Assembly: GCA_030829765.1 (NCBI GenBank)
Contig: JAUROO010000094.1
Location: forward strand, 1-52,267
DNA from: Miltoncostaeales bacterium
Lineage (GTDB): Bacteria > Actinomycetota > Thermoleophilia > Miltoncostaeales > Miltoncostaeaceae
Length of the DNA: 52,267 bases
Direction of reading: 5' to 3'
The first letter of the stretch is position 1. Each line of letters starts with the position of its first letter. The translations under genes were made by a program, and so were the position numbers. The notes beneath the pieces are model-generated. The model was not told the DNA's origin. It was given only the letters and a program-made list of their open reading frames with translations, and ran no database searches. Positions 1 through 6,657 of the stretch are shown here, piece by piece.

Positions 1-1658
1 CACTTGGCCACGCTCTCCAGCTCGTTGATGTTGGTCTCGGCCTTGATGAGGCGGGCCAGCTGGCCGGTGTAGTTCACCTCGGGCACGATGATGCGCGTGG
101 CGTTGGCCACGAAGTCCTCGACGCGGCTGGCCGGGAAAGGCCCGAGCACGCGCGGGTAGAACGCGCCGACGGACAGCCCCTGCTCGGCCAGGCGGTCCAC
201 GGCCTCGCGCACCGGGCCGAAGGTGGATCCGAAGCCGATGAAGGCGACGTCGGTGGGCTGCTGCTCGCCGTGGGTGGCCACGCGCGAGGTCTCGCGGATG
301 GGCTCCAGCTTGCCCAGGCGCTTGGTCTGCATGCCCAGGTGGATCTCAGGCGTGTAGCCGGGGTGGCCGTACTCATCGTGCTCGATGCCCGTGGCCACGT
401 ACATGCCGTCCGGCTCGCCCGGAAGACCCATCGGCGACACGCCGCTGTCGGTGTACTCGTACCGCTTGTAGTCCTCGCGGGCGATGCCGGCTGAGGTGGT
501 GCGACGCTTGATGTCCAGCGCATCCACATCGGGCCGGTGGATCACCTCGAGGCGCGTGGCCAGGCCCTGGTCGGTAAGCAGCAGCACCGGAACCTGGAAT
601 TCCTCGGCGTAGTTGAAGGCGTCCACGATCGAGTAGAAGCAGTCCTCCACCGACACCGGGGCGATCACCACGCGCGGTGCCTCGCCGTGGCTTCCGTAGA
701 GCGCCTGGTTCAGGTCGCTCTGCTCGGTCTTGGTGGGGAGCCCTGTGGAGGGGCCGCCGCGCTGGGCGTCCACGATCACCACGGGAATCTCTGCCGTGCC
801 GGCGTACCCGATCAGCTCGTTCATGAGCGAGATGCCGGGACCCGAGGTGGCGGTCATGGCCTTGGCGCCGGTGTAGGAGGCCCCCACGACCGAGGCCAGC
901 GACGCGATCTCGTCCTCGCACTGGATGGTGAGGCCACCGACCTGCGGGAGGCGGACCGACAACCACTCCAGGATGTCGGAGGCCGGGGTGATCGGGTAGC
1001 CCGCGAAGTAGTTGACGCCCGCTGCCACGGCACCCACGGCGATGGCCTGGTTGCCCGAGATGAGCATGCGGTCGGCTTCGACCTCCACCGGGGGAGCCAG
1101 CGGGTAGCGACCCTTCAGGTCGGCCGACTCATCGGCGCCGGCGTGCAGCGCGGCGATGTTGGCATCGGCAACGCCCTCCTTGTGGGCGTAGCGGCGCAGC
1201 ACCAGCTCCTCGATGGGCGTGGTGTCGAAGTCGATCACGGCCGAGATGGCGCCGGCGGCCACCATGTTCTTGGCGCGGGTGGAGCCGCCGATCTCCTTGG
1301 CCAGCTCATCCATGCGCACCGGGCGGGCCCGGGGCAGGTACTCCTCGGGAAGGGCGACCTCCACCGAGTCGTAGAGGATGACTCCCTCGGGGCCCAGTGA
1401 GTCCCAGTTCAGGTCCCAGGCCTCCTGGTTGAAGCACACGAGGAGGTCGACGTCCTTGCCGTGGCTCCAGATGGGCTCGTCGCTCAGGCGGAACTGGTAC
1501 ATGCACGGCCCGCCCTTGATCTCGGCGGGGAATGTGCGGAACGTCTGGGTGTAGTACCCGCCGCGTGCGGCGGCCTGCGTCAGGATGTCCCCGCAGGAGA
1601 TGACGCCCTCACCGGACTCACCGGCAAGGCGGACTACGACGGAGTGTCGTGCGGACAA
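1..1658 (-). CDS. korA: 2-oxoglutarate/2-oxoacid:ferredoxin oxidoreductase alpha subunit; C-terminus lies beyond the window start
   Basis: My own minus-strand translation from TTG at 1658 (GGAGG 4 nt upstream) gives LSARHSVVVRLAGESGEGVISCGDILTQAAARGGYYTQTFRTFPAEIKGGP ... GNQAIAVGAVAAGVNYFAGYPITPASDILEWL ... TATSGPGISLMNE ... DAQRGGPSTGLPTKTEQSDL. The frame is open to position 1. It is absent from the ORF track because it has no stop in the window. Track ORF 537..1400(+) is its antisense shadow. Confidence 0.85.
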   Translation of the reverse strand, partial: MSARHSVVVRLAGESGEGVISCGDILTQAAARGGYYTQTFRTFPAEIKGGPCMYQFRLSDEPIWSHGKDVDLLVCFNQEAWDLNWDSLGPEGVILYDSVEVALPEEYLPRARPVRMDELAKEIGGSTRAKNMVAAGAISAVIDFDTTPIEELVLRRYAHKEGVADANIAALHAGADESADLKGRYPLAPPVEVEADRMLISGNQAIAVGAVAAGVNYFAGYPITPASDILEWLSVRLPQVGGLTIQCEDEIASLASVVGASYTGAKAMTATSGPGISLMNELIGYAGTAEIPVVIVDAQRGGPSTGLPTKTEQSDLNQALYGSHGEAPRVVIAPVSVEDCFYSIVDAFNYAEEFQVPVLLLTDQGLATRLEVIHRPDVDALDIKRRTTSAGIAREDYKRYEYTDSGVSPMGLPGEPDGMYVATGIEHDEYGHPGYTPEIHLGMQTKRLGKLEPIRETSRVATHGEQQPTDVAFIGFGSTFGPVREAVDRLAEQGLSVGAFYPRVLGPFPASRVEDFVANATRIIVPEVNYTGQLARLIKAETNINELESVAK

Positions 1659-1766
1659 CGTGCCTCCAAGGTGGATGTCGCCCGGGACGCGCGTGCCCGG
1701 GCGGCGTACCGGCGGGCCCTGGAGGATTCGGGACACCTGGGAGACGCCGGTTCGATTGCCGGCGGG

Positions 1767-1795
1767 ATGCTAGCCACGCCCCCGCGCGCGGGCAA
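1767..1795 (-). promoter_or_regulatory. candidate sigma-A-type promoter for korA
   Basis: On the minus strand: TTGCCC (1795-1790), a 17-nt spacer, then TAGCAT (1772-1767), about 100 nt upstream of the korA TTG. This is a pattern match only. Confidence 0.25.
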
Positions 1796-1829
1796 TGCGC
1801 CCGCCCACCGGGGGTGACGAAAGCCCCCC

Positions 1830-1854
1830 GACCCCGGTGCCCGGCACCGGGGTC
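1830..1854 (-). terminator. hairpin at the end of the heliorhodopsin operon
   Basis: Perfect 11-bp stem GACCCCGGTGC/GCACCGGGGTC with a 3-nt loop. It overlaps the stop codon (1853-1855) of the 112-aa ORF. On the minus strand it is followed by GGGGGGCTTTCG, which is only a weak U tract. Confidence 0.45.
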
Positions 1855-2191
1855 AGCCGGCGAGGCCCGCCATCAGCACGGGGACGAGCAGGATGCCTGC
1901 GATCAGGGCCAGGGTCGTGCCGCCGGCGACCAGCAGCGCGGGAAGGGGCGGGCGCGTCGCGGTGGTGGCTGCAGCGGCGCCGGCGATGATCGCGACGGTG
2001 CCGATGGCGCCGAGCCCGGCCAGCACGCCGGCGATCACATGCCACCCGGCCCCGTGGGAGCTGGTGACGATGGCGCCGAAGCCCATCACGGGGACCATCG
2101 CGGCGGGAATCAGCACAAACGCCGCGGCGACGATGACCGGCAGCCGGTAGTCGGCCGGGTCGCCGTCTCCGGCCCCCAGCCAGCGGATCAT
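1853..2191 (-). CDS. hypothetical small membrane protein (112 aa, about 3 hydrophobic helices), co-translated with heliorhodopsin
   Basis: The ATG at 2191 overlaps the heliorhodopsin stop (ATGA, 2188-2191). There are three long hydrophobic stretches (LPVIVAAAFVLIPAAMVPVMGFGAIV, WHVIAGVLAGLGAIGTVAIIAGAAA, LPALLVAGGTTLALIAGILLVPVLMAGL). GC3 is high. I recognise no family. Confidence 0.6.
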   Translation of the reverse strand: MIRWLGAGDGDPADYRLPVIVAAAFVLIPAAMVPVMGFGAIVTSSHGAGWHVIAGVLAGLGAIGTVAIIAGAAAATTATRPPLPALLVAGGTTLALIAGILLVPVLMAGLAG

Positions 2192-2949
2192 CCCGCGAGC
2201 GCCGAGGCGAAGATCTGCCAGGCCAGCAGCGACTTCGCCACCAGCGACAGCACCAGGTATGTCTTCTCATACGGGACGATGCCCGCCCACCGACCCTTGC
2301 GCGCGTAGTGCAGCCACATGTTCAGGGCGAAGGTGAAGAACAGGACGAACAGCGAGATGTAGATGGCCCAGATGGCGGCGGGCACCCCGGCGTCGATCTG
2401 CGCGCGCACCAGCACGATGCCGATGGCGATCCACGGGAACGCCCCGGTGATGCACCCGTAGATGAAGGGGCGCCAGTCCACGCGCTCGGTACCCGCCGGG
2501 TTGCGGTGCTCCATCGCCAGGCCGAAGAGGATCATCCCCACGTTGGCGCCGGCGATCGCGATGAGCGCCGTGACCTCCTGCACGCTGCTGACCAGCGCGA
2601 TCAGCACGATCATCAGCGATGCGCTGACCGAGTACTCCCACCAGCGCAGCGGGTTGGTGCCCCGCCCGAGGTTGGCGATGTACCAGCGGTCGATGCCGGG
2701 CAGCGCGCACAGCAGGTGATCGAGTGCTGCGAGGAACAGGAATACCGCCACGAACGTGGCGATGGGCACCTGCCACACCGGCTCCGTTCCGAGGATGGGG
2801 CTGCCGGGCGGGCCGACCATGTACGGGATGGTCACGCCCAGCGTGAACCCGTTGGAGAGCAGCAGGATGGCCACGCCCTGCGCCGCGTGCAGGATCGCGA
2901 GGGCGATGTTCCAGCGGCGGAGGTTTGGCGCGGCCTGCTCGGGCGTCAT
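2188..2949 (-). CDS. heliorhodopsin (retinal-binding 7-TM protein)
   Basis: The 253-aa product is similar along its full length to heliorhodopsin 48C12 as I remember it. Matching segments are AILHAAQG, ALDHLL, RWWEYSVSASLMIVLIA (TM3 Glu), ILFGLAMEH, GCITGAFPWIAIG, ISLFVLFFTFALN and YLVLSLVAKSLLAWQIF (TM7 Schiff-base Lys). Confidence 0.9.
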   Translation of the reverse strand: MTPEQAAPNLRRWNIALAILHAAQGVAILLLSNGFTLGVTIPYMVGPPGSPILGTEPVWQVPIATFVAVFLFLAALDHLLCALPGIDRWYIANLGRGTNPLRWWEYSVSASLMIVLIALVSSVQEVTALIAIAGANVGMILFGLAMEHRNPAGTERVDWRPFIYGCITGAFPWIAIGIVLVRAQIDAGVPAAIWAIYISLFVLFFTFALNMWLHYARKGRWAGIVPYEKTYLVLSLVAKSLLAWQIFASALAG

Positions 2950-2955
2950 GCCGCA

Positions 2956-2965
2956 ACCCTATCGT
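2956..2965. promoter_or_regulatory. overlapping divergent -10-like hexamers, suggesting leaderless heliorhodopsin and trmH-like transcripts
   Basis: Minus-strand TAGGGT (2961-2956) ends 6 nt before the heliorhodopsin ATG (2949). Plus-strand TATCGT (2960-2965) ends 7 nt before the GTG at 2973. Neither start has an SD. This is pattern only. Confidence 0.25.
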
Positions 2966-2972
2966 CCAGCGC

Positions 2973-3758
2973 GTGGACGACGACGCCCTGCGCCACATGT
3001 TCGCCGGCCTGCGCGGCGAGGAGCGCCGGGTGCGCCGCCCTCCCCCCGACGGACGGGGCGGACTGCTGCTGGCCGAGGGCGCGCGGGTGGTGGATCGCTG
3101 CCGGCAGGCAGGCCACCACCTGCGGGCACTGCTGGTGAGCACCGGCTATTCCGGTCCCCTCCCCTCCCCCGCCGTGCCGACGCTGGTCCTGGATCCGGAG
3201 GAGATCCAGCGGCTCACCGGGTTCGGCGCCATGCGGGAGATGCTGGGCGCCTTCGACAGGCCCCCGGACCCGGTGGCCGCCGACGTGCTGCCCGGCGCGC
3301 GGCGCGCCCTGGTGCTGGAAGGCGTGATGAACCCCTCGAACGTGGGCACGATCATCCGCAGCGCCACGGCACTGGGCGTGGATGCCACGCTCATCGGCCC
3401 GGGCTCTGCCGACCCCTTCGGCCGCCGGGCGCTGCGCACGTCAATGGGCGCAGCGCTGGTGCACCCGTGGGCCATCACGGCCGATCCCGTGGCCGATCTC
3501 CGCGCCGCGGGGTTCGCCGTGCTCGCACTCACGCCTGAGGCGGATGCCACCCCCCTGCCCCGGGCACTCGCTGCACGAGCGGGGGGACGCGTGGCGCTGG
3601 CGCTCGGCTCGGAGGGGCCGGGCCTCAGCCCGGGAATGCTGGATGCCGCCGATGCGCGGGTAACGATCCGCATGGCGTCCGGCGTGGATTCGCTGAACGT
3701 GGCCGCGGCGGCCGCGGTCGCATGCTGGCTGCTGGCCCAACCCGGCCCCGCGGAGTAG
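2973..3758 (+). CDS. SpoU/TrmH-family RNA 2'-O-methyltransferase
   Basis: SpoU motifs are present: LVLEGVMNPSNVGTIIRSATALG, LALGSEGPGLS, IRMASGVDSLNVAAAAAVACW. The track start at 2925 would overlap the divergent heliorhodopsin start, so I prefer the in-frame GTG at 2973 (VDDDALRHMF). The exact start is uncertain. Confidence 0.8.
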   Translation: MDDDALRHMFAGLRGEERRVRRPPPDGRGGLLLAEGARVVDRCRQAGHHLRALLVSTGYSGPLPSPAVPTLVLDPEEIQRLTGFGAMREMLGAFDRPPDPVAADVLPGARRALVLEGVMNPSNVGTIIRSATALGVDATLIGPGSADPFGRRALRTSMGAALVHPWAITADPVADLRAAGFAVLALTPEADATPLPRALAARAGGRVALALGSEGPGLSPGMLDAADARVTIRMASGVDSLNVAAAAAVACWLLAQPGPAE

Positions 3759-3830
3759 AGGCGACCACCGGAATCGAACCGGTTCATGGCGGTTTTGCAG
3801 ACCGCTGCGTTCCCACTTCGCCAGGTCGCC
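3759..3830 (-). tRNA. tRNA-Cys (anticodon GCA)
   Basis: Reverse complement: GGCGACC-TG-GCGA..ACGC-A-GCGGT-CTGCAAA-ACCGC-CATGA-ACCGG-TTCGATT-CCGGT-GGTCGCC-T. It folds as a cloverleaf with anticodon GCA and an A13:A22 mismatch, as in known tRNA-Cys. No CCA is encoded (CTA follows). The 3-prime end abuts the trmH-like stop codon. Confidence 0.95.
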
Positions 3831-3854
3831 GTGCGGGAGGAAGGCTAAACGACG

Positions 3855-3875
3855 AACGCCCCCGGTGGGGGCGTT
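3855..3875 (-). other. perfect hairpin between tRNA-Gly and tRNA-Cys (processing or termination structure)
   Basis: AACGCCCCC-GGT-GGGGGCGTT, a 9-bp stem with a 3-nt loop. On the minus strand it is followed by CGTCGTTTAGCC. Confidence 0.4.
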
Positions 3876-3883
3876 CCAGTGAG

Positions 3884-3957
3884 AGCGGATGAAGGGACTC
3901 GAACCCTCGACCTTCTGCATGGCAAGCAGACGCTCTAGCCAACAGAGCTACATCCGC
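3884..3957 (-). tRNA. tRNA-Gly (anticodon GCC)
   Basis: Reverse complement: GCGGATG-TA-GCTC-TGTTGGCT-AGAGC-G-TCTGC-TTGCCAT-GCAGA-AGGTC-GAGGG-TTCGAGT-CCCTT-CATCCGC-T. Length is 74 nt. No CCA is encoded (CTC follows). Confidence 0.95.
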
Positions 3958-3972: not shown

Positions 3973-4764
3973 CTAGCAGGCATCCCGCCAGGGGTCGGTG
4001 TCGCCGCGCGCGAAGGCCACCTCCACGCCGTGCGGCGCAAGGGCCGCAGCCAGCACCGGGGTCCACATCCGCATGGCGTGCTGCTCCACGGCGCCATGGG
4101 CGATGTTCATCAGCCCCATGCCCTCGGCCGCGTCGGCGTCGTGGTACTTCAGGTCGCCGGTCACATAGGCGTCCGCCCCCCACTGCCGCGCGGCCGCGAT
4201 CAGCGACCCGCCCGATCCGGTGCACACCGCCAGGCGCGACACCAGCCGCCCGGGGTCACCCGCCACCCCCAGGTTGGCGCGGCGGGTGCAGAACACCTCC
4301 ACGCACCGCGAAGCCAGCTCGTCCAGCGGCGCCGGATCGATCATCCCCGCCCGGCCCAGCCCCATGGCCGGGTCATCCACGTCCGGCACCAGCGGCACGC
4401 GGTCGCGCATGCCGAGCGCGTCGGCCATCAGGTCGTTCAGCCCCCCGGCCACGGAATCGAGGTTGGTGTGCGCCGCCACCACCGCGATCCGCTCCTCGGC
4501 GGCGCGCAGCACCAGCGCCCCGGCAGTGCGCTGGTCGCTCACCGCCGACAGCGCGGGGAAGATGGGCGGGTGGTGCACCAGCACCAGGTCGGCACCGGCG
4601 CCCCGGGCCTCATCCAGCACATGCGCACGCAGGTCGAGCGCCACCAGCACGCGGGTGACCGGCCGGTCACGACGCCCCACCATCAGGCCGACGTTGTCCC
4701 ACTCCTCGCACAGGCGCATCGGCGCCAGGCGATCGAGCACCGCGAGCAGTTCGCCAACCCTCAC
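3973..4764 (-). CDS. Nif3-like dinuclear metal-centre protein (YbgI/YqfO family)
   Basis: VRVGELLAVLDRLAPMRLCEEWDNVGLMVG ... VLVHHPPIF ... AAHTNLD ... VTGDLKYHDA. The GTG at 4764 overlaps the upstream stop (GTGA). The track's longer N-terminus is Arg/Pro-rich junk. Confidence 0.85.
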   Translation of the reverse strand: MRVGELLAVLDRLAPMRLCEEWDNVGLMVGRRDRPVTRVLVALDLRAHVLDEARGAGADLVLVHHPPIFPALSAVSDQRTAGALVLRAAEERIAVVAAHTNLDSVAGGLNDLMADALGMRDRVPLVPDVDDPAMGLGRAGMIDPAPLDELASRCVEVFCTRRANLGVAGDPGRLVSRLAVCTGSGGSLIAAARQWGADAYVTGDLKYHDADAAEGMGLMNIAHGAVEQHAMRMWTPVLAAALAPHGVEVAFARGDTDPWRDAC

Positions 4765-5078
4765 GTGCGGCCGTCCTTCGCGGTGAAGAAACGCATCATC
4801 ACAAGCGCATCGATGGCGGCGATCACGCCAAGCACCGTCAGCACGATGAGCGACCCCGGCGTGAGGCTGCCCTGCTGGTCGAGGATCAGTCCGATCGCCA
4901 ATGCGCCGACGAACCAGATGAGCGCGCGCCCGAACCGCCCGATGTACACGTGCCCGAGCCCCGGGATGATGAGGCTGAGGATGATGGCGATGGCCACCGA
5001 CCGCCCCCGTGGCCGGCGGGCCGGGCCACGTTGCGGATCGGGGCTCACGCGGCGTAGGCCTGCCGCTCGCGCGCCCAC
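4761..5078 (-). CDS. small membrane protein with a PGLGHVYIG motif
   Basis: Two hydrophobic helices: AIAIILSLIIPGLGHVYIGRFGRALIWFVGALAIGLIL and IVLTVLGVIAAIDALVMM. The start may instead be the in-frame GTG at 4997, which would remove the 34-nt overlap with the upstream MBL gene. Confidence 0.55.
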   Translation of the reverse strand: MGARAAGLRRVSPDPQRGPARRPRGRSVAIAIILSLIIPGLGHVYIGRFGRALIWFVGALAIGLILDQQGSLTPGSLIVLTVLGVIAAIDALVMMRFFTAKDGRT

Positions 5079-5817: not shown

Positions 5818-6657
5818 ATGGTCCGGTCCCTCATCACGCTCGCGGCCCTCGCCGCACTCGGCATCGGCCTCGCAGGCTGCGGTGGCGGCACGGATCTCAC
5901 CGCCGGCATGAGCGCACAGCAGGTGCTGGACGAGGCGTCTGCGAAGACCGACGCCATCACCTCTTACCGCTTCGGGGTGGACGTGAAGGCCACGGCCACC
6001 ATCCCGGGCACCGGAGTGCTGGCCGATGCGCTCCGCAACCCCGTGGAATTGTCCGGCGAGGGGGCGGCGAAGGACCCGGGCGACTTCACCCTCGACCTCA
6101 CCGCGAACCTCGGGCCGGGCGACATCCAGGCCAACATCACCAAGGTCGGTGGAGCGCTGTACGCGTCGGTGCTGGGGCAGGACATCAAGTTGGACGTACC
6201 GGCCGCCACCGTGCGCTCGCTCGACCCCACGCGGCTTGCCCCGGCCATCTCGTCGTGGATGGCCGACCCGGAGATCGTGGGCACCGAGGACATCGATGGC
6301 ATGCCCATGGTGCACCTGCGGGGCGACGTGGATGAGAAGGCGCTGGCCGAGGACCTGTCCGGGCTGGCCGACGGCCTTGGGGCGGATGGCGCCATCACCC
6401 CCGGTGCCGCCGGCGCATCGGGCGACCTGGAGACCGGGACCGTGGATGTGTGGGTGGGGCAGGAGGACCTGCTCATCCACCGGGCGGCCGCCCAGGTGAG
6501 CTCGAGCGACCGCCTGCGCGTGGCGCCTCAGGTGGCGGCCCTCGACCTCGATCTGAGCGCGAGCCTCTCCGACTTCGGGGCCCCGGTCGAGGTGACCGCA
6601 CCCACGGGGGCCCAAACCGTGGACCTCGGCTCCATCACGGCGCTGCTCGGCGGCTAG
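5818..6657 (+). CDS. lipoprotein, LppX/LprAFG-like (LolA-fold) by pattern
   Basis: Signal peptide plus lipobox LAGC|GGG. The layout resembles LprG (Q.VLDEA...T..I.S.RF, ..GALYA.., VDVWVGQEDLL, final VEVTAP). The family assignment is from memory of LprG, not from a search. Confidence 0.6.
   Translation: MVRSLITLAALAALGIGLAGCGGGTDLTAGMSAQQVLDEASAKTDAITSYRFGVDVKATATIPGTGVLADALRNPVELSGEGAAKDPGDFTLDLTANLGPGDIQANITKVGGALYASVLGQDIKLDVPAATVRSLDPTRLAPAISSWMADPEIVGTEDIDGMPMVHLRGDVDEKALAEDLSGLADGLGADGAITPGAAGASGDLETGTVDVWVGQEDLLIHRAAAQVSSSDRLRVAPQVAALDLDLSASLSDFGAPVEVTAPTGAQTVDLGSITALLGG

Follow-up and report, generated by a model that had tools for sequence, protein, structure and literature searches.

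A heliorhodopsin gene overlapping an orphan three-helix membrane-protein gene in Miltoncostaeaceae, a candidate heliorhodopsin partner

The stretch of DNA analysed here, called the window throughout, comprises 52,267 nucleotides of contig JAUROO010000094.1 from a Miltoncostaeales bacterium (assembly GCA_030829765.1; Thermoleophilia). On its minus strand it encodes a heliorhodopsin (HeR), and the HeR gene is followed by an overlapping gene for a 112-residue membrane protein, hereafter the small gene and the small protein (Table 1). Judged by family searches and conservation among relatives, the pair is a two-gene unit of a bona fide HeR and a lineage-restricted orphan three-helix membrane-protein gene. 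Among the operons of this known photoreceptor family it is a new variant, one in which the candidate partner is an orphan. For a HeR partner, the small protein is a reasonable but unproven candidate. We tentatively regard it as an accessory subunit in the membrane that is produced along with HeR, a role to which a probability of about 0.45 is assigned.

The HeR open reading frame (ORF) is, by every sequence test available, a genuine full-length heliorhodopsin. It matches Pfam family PF18761 over the entire model (positions 1-242 of 242) with an expectation value (E) of 1.1e-81 and 274 bits against a cutoff of 26.7, and it scores 248 bits (cutoff 100) with the NCBIfam HeR equivalog NF038020. 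A phmmer search of the PDB retrieved 48C12 (6su3, 6uh3) at E = 8e-51 and the heliorhodopsin 6is6 at E = 2e-47. The register with 48C12 (6su3) is gapless over the first 150 residues and places H21, H78 and E105 on H23, H80 and E107, E105 being the predicted counterion glutamate; the Schiff-base lysine K239, located in SLVAKSLLAWQIF, is aligned to K241. The four hallmark motifs by which the initial annotation had recognised the HeR are all present, and both the family models, passed far above their cutoffs, and the coincidence of the lysine, glutamate and two histidine positions with those of 48C12 bear that assignment out. Among 25 relatives, K239, E105 and H78 are invariant and H21 is kept in 24. 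The HeR gene has a G+C content at third codon positions (GC3) of 0.95 and a ratio of nonsynonymous to synonymous substitution rates (dN/dS) of 0.13. An inverted topology with a cytoplasmic N-terminus, retinal binding, a slow photocycle and the absence of ion pumping are expected from homology to the solved HeRs. It shares the lysine, the glutamate, the two histidines, the length and the seven transmembrane (TM) helices with 48C12 and TaHeR (6su3, 6uh3, 6is6; PF18761), whereas it differs from them in its origin from an uncultured member of the Thermoleophilia (Miltoncostaeaceae), in its apparently leaderless mRNA, and in preceding an overlapping orphan membrane-protein gene, which is undescribed for other HeRs.

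The small gene is annotated as 'hypothetical protein' by the NCBI pipeline in metagenome-assembled genomes (MAGs) of Miltoncostaeaceae and Thermoleophilia. Its GC3 of 0.92 and a dN/dS that is lowest in its own frame argue that it is a real, conserved gene and not a chance ORF of a 72% G+C genome. The frame is open and constant in length in 10 species-level loci, and 59% of the pairwise differences fall at third codon positions. The median dN/dS is 0.25 in this frame, compared with 0.43 in the antisense frame that has the third positions in common with it and 1.5-2.5 in the other three frames. The constraint is not spread evenly over the protein, with dN/dS values of 0.10 for TM1, 0.44 for TM2 and 0.11 for TM3; those of TM1 and TM3 resemble the 0.13 of HeR. 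The claim of the initial annotation that an uncharacterised 112-residue protein is encoded here is thus borne out by the conserved length, the dN/dS value and the predicted fold.

AlphaFold2, supplied with a 27-sequence family alignment, predicted a three-helix bundle for the small protein (helices at residues 12-43, 48-76 and 83-111) with a predicted local distance difference test score of 88.7 and a predicted template modelling score of 0.80, in agreement with the three hydrophobic helices described previously. The bundle is confident, but a Foldseek search of the model against the PDB yielded no fold match, the best hit being a designed helical bundle at E = 0.66. The conserved features include R16-x-P18 before TM1, PVMGFGAI in TM1, G-x-G-W in loop 1 and, in the region of TM3, P82-x-P84 and ALLVAGGTTLAL.AGILLVPVLMAG (also given as PxPALLVAGGTTLAL.AGILLVPVLMAG); TM3 also carries a glycine-zipper-like G91xxxA95xxxG99 motif. 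The HGAGWH loop highlighted earlier does exist in the window protein, but its conservation is limited to G-x-G-W, and histidine is replaced by asparagine in several homologues. Both tails are at most 17 residues long, the N-terminal one varying in length and start codon, and loop 2 has about 8 residues. In a variant form of the small protein (P0022, L098, L099), 9 residues of TM2 are deleted, consistent with the looser constraint on that helix.

Neither the small protein nor any of the 27 family members matched a Pfam or NCBIfam family, and only sub-threshold noise was obtained (e.g., Ureide_permease at E = 0.003). A word-indexed search of 5.8 billion proteins returned 33 relatives, all of them unnamed and at least 60% identical, and an exhaustive hidden Markov model search of 1.84 billion representative proteins gave 10 matches, all from Miltoncostaeaceae-type Thermoleophilia. 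Across these searches the small protein is a lineage-restricted orphan of one freshwater and estuarine actinobacterial family. Two candidate identities were rejected: a duplicate of HeR helices, as BLASTP against HeR showed no similarity, and a lycopene cyclase subunit of the CrtYc/CrtYd type (about 100-120 residues, three TM helices), considered since HeR needs retinal, for which no Pfam or NCBIfam match was found.

The junction of the two genes was described correctly in the initial annotation: the TGA stop codon of HeR and the ATG start codon of the small gene have four nucleotides in common. The same ATGA overlap is present in further loci (L001-L003, L008-L013, L080-L085 and L088-L097). 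The codon at the alternative start position, -33, is CTG rather than ATG in the window, and therefore the ATGA start would be the one used. Because the small gene is without usable Shine-Dalgarno spacing, its translation is likely to proceed by termination-reinitiation at ATGA. On the upstream side, ten loci keep a TAnnnT box at a distance of 6 nt from the start codon, among them loci in which HeR begins five codons earlier. A TAnnnT box close to the start codon is typical of leaderless actinobacterial mRNAs, and its conserved position implies that the HeR mRNA is leaderless. The HeR ATG (2949, minus strand) is separated by a gap of 23 bp (2950-2972) from the GTG start codon of a divergent SpoU-methylase gene (2973, plus strand). 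A TATCGT sequence at 2960-2965 on the plus strand precedes SpoU as TAGGGT precedes HeR, each 6-7 nt from its start codon; the two boxes overlap at their central TA and look like a face-to-face leaderless promoter pair.

On the downstream side, a promoter-like element 5' of korA is invariant in 6 aligned loci, including those without the small gene, and the HeR-small unit plausibly ends ahead of it. With a conserved -10 box before HeR and this conserved element before korA, the two genes plausibly form a self-contained unit. The initial annotation had reached the same view from an 11-bp hairpin said to close the unit. The hairpin exists, but a U-tract is absent, the terminator scan did not report it and it is not conserved (L002, a 98%-identical locus, lacks 14 nt of it, and there are differences at other loci too), so that its reading as an intrinsic terminator was downgraded; the self-contained unit is retained on the two conserved boundaries and not on the hairpin. 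The korA gene itself has an untranslated leader of about 100 nt, a GGAGG sequence at 1667-1663 and a TTG start codon at 1658. The non-coding region 5' of it (1659-1795, minus strand) is conserved, nearly invariant with or without the small gene, and may be a regulatory leader of the 2-oxoacid:ferredoxin oxidoreductase operon; Rfam detected no RNA family within 1500-3200, the conserved korA leader included.

Table 1. Features of the heliorhodopsin-small gene unit in the window, and recurrent additional genes at related loci (coordinates of the latter refer to the locus named).
Feature	Coordinates	Strand	Basis or remark
HeR gene, 253 aa	2188..2949	minus	Pfam, NCBIfam, PDB alignment
Orphan small membrane-protein gene, 112 aa, three TM helices	1853..2191	minus	dN/dS, alignment, AlphaFold2
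ATGA overlap (HeR stop TGA, small-gene start ATG)	2188..2191	minus	sequence
-10-like box TAGGGT, 6 nt 5' of HeR ATG	2956..2961	minus	conserved TAnnnT in 10 loci
Hairpin, 11-bp stem, 3-nt loop	1830..1854	minus	fold; overlaps small-gene stop codon
Promoter-like element TTGCCC (1795-1790), 17 nt, TAGCAT (1772-1767)	1767..1795	minus	5' of korA
FUSC_2 gene, L078	2187-3263
FUSC_2 gene, L006	2889-3947
FUSC_2 gene, L014	5088-6164
FUSC_2 gene, L019	742-1812
FUSC_2 relic (51 codons), L018	4800-5012
Insert gene of about 356 aa, L007	5110-6180
Insert gene of about 356 aa, L013	5098-6168
Insert gene of about 356 aa, L076	3304-4386
Insert gene of about 356 aa, L079	1503-2573

The HeR relatives compared were taken from 66 species-representative genomes, those of the close clade being MAGs labelled Thermoleophilia or Miltoncostaeaceae, and those with HeRs at most 55% identical belonging to Solirubrobacterales and others. 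The small gene comes next after HeR in L001-L003 and L007-L013. At about 45 more distant HeR loci, neither the small gene nor an analogous, non-homologous small TM gene was found after HeR. A profile search that started from the small protein recovered 11 genome loci and 13 JGI metagenome loci, each of them with HeR directly upstream; in the intact contexts, about 40 contigs, HeR is always upstream of the small gene and usually overlaps it, and the contexts obtained by exact protein look-up (L076-L085), as well as L087, agree with this linkage. The apparent exception L079 is a scaffold gap, and the contig of L073 begins 49 nt before the small gene, with the HeR half on another contig of the same MAG. 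The synteny is thus very strong when followed from the small gene to HeR, but it is not general to HeRs and belongs to one family. Between the small gene and korA, several relatives have a gene of about 356 residues with a signal-peptide-like N-terminus and no Pfam match (Table 1).

HeR and the small gene are separated in a subclade whose HeR is about 70% identical. The distance is 21 nt in L017. In L019 a gene for a FUSC_2-type membrane protein (358 aa; PF13515, ArAE-like) lies between the two; in L014 and L015 the order is HeR, a 472-aa gene on the opposite strand, FUSC_2 and the small gene, which in L014 begins 16 nt after FUSC_2 and 2.7 kb from HeR; and in L018 HeR is followed by a 51-codon FUSC_2 relic, the small gene and korA. 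A stretch of about 36 nt with homology to the HeR 3' end (...AWQVFA..AG and the stop codon) lies ahead of the small gene in L014 (~6165-6215) and L018 (~5020-5070), and this relic holds an in-frame ATG and the first 11 codons of the small gene (MAGIRHGARWL). The same ATG is found 33 nt inside HeR in L007, L078 and L001. The relic before the separated small genes points to the overlapping junction as the ancestral state, and it is at the HeR 3' end, originally overlapping it, that the small gene seems to have originated. Its start codon has shifted between lineages (-33, -3, +21). The sole context without HeR, L086 (GCA_039746675.1, 1-4315), carries a distant, degenerate homologue, P0039, which is without the conserved TM3; this single case fits decay of the small gene in the absence of HeR. 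P0039 precedes korAB, neither HeR nor SpoU lies in its vicinity, and phage-like genes including a TerL terminase lie directly upstream of it, so the loss of HeR there may be tied to prophage integration.

An accessory role for the small protein is favoured by its persistent linkage to HeR, by the HeR-like constraint on two of its helices and by precedent. Other HeRs are known to work through the binding of proteins encoded by adjacent genes, which are glutamine synthetase in the case of AbHeR (PMC9529153), photolyase in that of TfHeR (PMC9769723) and the membrane ABC transporter OmrDE in that of OcHeR (PMC11109279). HeR and the small gene would be transcribed as a leaderless bicistronic mRNA, and the small protein, translated by termination-reinitiation, would be synthesised near HeR, at about the same time and in a similar amount. 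The positive-inside rule predicts its insertion as N-in/C-out, in the same orientation as HeR, with the invariant R16 before TM1 and the arginine of loop 2 facing the cytoplasm and the GxGW loop outside. Packing against HeR would fall to the strongly constrained TM1 and TM3, and the small protein could modulate the assembly, stability or photocycle of HeR, or connect it with some other protein of the membrane. It would be no signal relay with an output domain of its own. It would be an optional add-on, because HeR persists without the small gene in one clade. A more ambitious form of this proposal, which we consider rather unlikely, is that the small protein represents the first dedicated membrane-embedded HeR subunit, the product of a gene that originated de novo in Miltoncostaeaceae when the HeR 3' end was overprinted or extended, binding HeR via TM1 and TM3, and either tuning the output of HeR or coupling it to the FUSC_2-type exporter of an ancestral three-gene cluster in a light-modulated efflux.

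The alternative that survives best is that the small protein is independent of HeR, acting with the FUSC_2-type protein or in an unrelated membrane role, and that the adjacency reflects its birthplace and inherited synteny. This is a possibility of some substance, and several observations count for it and against an accessory subunit of HeR. First, FUSC_2 is a recurrent third neighbour in relatives, either directly upstream of HeR (L078, with a 9-nt gap and the order FUSC_2-HeR-small) or between HeR and the small gene (HeR-FUSC_2-small in L019, L014 and L016), and in the subclade described above, the small gene stands directly behind FUSC_2 instead of HeR, its L018 copy behind a FUSC_2 relic. 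Second, HeR survives without the small gene in L004-L006. These loci form one clade nested among loci having the small gene in the HeR tree, and in the DNA alignment the absence is clean between the HeR stop codon and the conserved region upstream of korA; by this evidence it is one secondary loss that HeR tolerated, so the small gene is dispensable for HeR. The HeRs of this clade keep all key residues and show 5 conservative clade-specific changes, which are uninformative on the loss. Third, the order NIF3-SpoU-HeR-small-korAB is conserved family-wide in data that all come from one family, and the adjacency of HeR and the small gene is therefore in part inherited synteny. Fourth, no HeR-small fusion occurs among the small-protein matches, the longest of which has 146 residues. 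The reach of the finding is limited to one uncultured family, in one clade of which HeR does without the small gene.

Independence from HeR has, on the other hand, its own difficulties. The lineage of the window and most others have no FUSC_2 nearby (none was detected in the 52-kb window), yet the small gene is under purifying selection and overlaps HeR. L006 carries the FUSC_2-HeR pair but not the small gene, which FUSC_2 therefore does not require either, and the one HeR-less locus carries a degenerate copy only. Two further observations concern these rearrangements. P0036 (146 aa) joins TM1-TM2 of the small protein to the C-terminal 60 residues of FUSC_2. In L004 (1255-1620) and in L005 and L006 (4690-5020), HeR ends in ...ALAG and the stop codon with GGCTGA, identical to the last bases of the small gene, and GGCTGA at both gene ends is compatible with a deletion between two similar ends.

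The initial annotation had suggested that the small protein is a transducer or effector. That it would be a true phototransducer like HtrI or HtrII, relaying the HeR signal to a cytoplasmic pathway, is very improbable and largely refuted by its architecture. The location in the same operon and the translational coupling are as in sensory rhodopsin-transducer operons (background in PMC11109279), and the conserved TM helices of the small protein could contact HeR. The likeness to SRI/HtrI and SRII/HtrII consists in a rhodopsin and a membrane partner encoded in one operon, with TM-TM contacts as the expected mode. However, Htr proteins have two TM helices and large HAMP and MCP domains, whereas the small protein has three TM helices and no soluble domain, so it would not be an Htr-type transducer. 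There is no match to HAMP, MCPsignal or any other family; the small protein is devoid of a cytoplasmic domain, with a short, variable N-terminal tail and a loop 2 of about 8 residues. The ORFs scanned in the window included no histidine-kinase or chemotaxis genes, nor any carotenoid or retinal genes, and HeR differs from the sensory rhodopsins in its inverted topology. The suggested transducer or effector function was therefore left with neither domain nor fold support. The weakest alternative, that the small ORF is a spurious high-G+C open frame or an untranslated 3' region of the HeR mRNA, can draw on the frequency of long chance ORFs at 72% G+C, the many overlapping ORFs listed in the window and an antisense frame that is likewise partly open, but it is left with virtually no probability, as the frame is open and of conserved length in all relatives, the dN/dS pattern across the frames already refutes it, the constraint differs helix by helix, and the frame persists, under a start codon of its own, where it has been parted from HeR.

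Returning to the small protein as an accessory subunit of HeR, it can be set beside two kinds of known system. Small hydrophobic accessory subunits such as KdpF, AcrZ and CydX are encoded in the operon of a larger membrane protein; many are dispensable, confined to particular lineages and unassigned to any domain family, and usually they have one TM helix and fewer than 50 residues. The small protein is likewise a small, purely hydrophobic protein encoded beside a larger membrane protein, its association with HeR being predicted, whereas its three helices and 112 residues set it apart from them. With the operons AbHeR-glutamine synthetase, TfHeR-photolyase and OcHeR-OmrDE (PMC9529153, PMC9769723, PMC11109279), the unit has in common that HeR is co-transcribed with a neighbouring gene, here by prediction, and the OmrDE case (PMC11109279) demonstrates that a HeR is able to regulate another integral membrane protein. 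The difference from those operons is that the neighbour here has 112 residues and no enzymatic or transport domain, and that its interaction with HeR is putative. The groups of HeR neighbours distinguished by Cho et al. (2024; PMC11109279) are glutamine synthetase, NAD+ synthetase (NadE), photolyase, MerR, TerC, ABC transporter, SDR, alpha/beta hydrolase, DUF2177 and DUF2238, and the small protein had no Pfam match at E<=1 to any of these ten groups. No mention of a small membrane protein with HeR was found in the papers searched, and the two among them that name both Miltoncostaeaceae and rhodopsin are silent on such a partner.

The surroundings of the pair are those of core housekeeping genes. 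The genes nearest to it are korA, SpoU, those for tRNA-Cys and tRNA-Gly, NIF3, MBL and LppX, and further along the window contains Suf, GlmS, GlmM, RplM, GuaAB, Alr and FtsZ. The minus-strand tRNA-Cys (GCA) and tRNA-Gly (GCC) genes (3758-3957) come directly after the SpoU gene, which is on the plus strand and converges with them. A second small membrane protein, 105 residues long and DUF6677-like, is encoded at 4761-5078 (minus strand) with a 4-nt overlap with the start of NIF3.

The cellular roles of heliorhodopsins are known case by case, examples being those that involve a glutamine synthetase, a photolyase and a single ABC transporter. Found nowhere else, and almost never apart from HeR, the small protein is a concrete and cheaply testable candidate for a further partner in this actinobacterial family. 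The locus also provides a clean example of an orphan membrane-protein gene that would have arisen where an older gene ends, at its 3' side, later to be kept, moved or lost.

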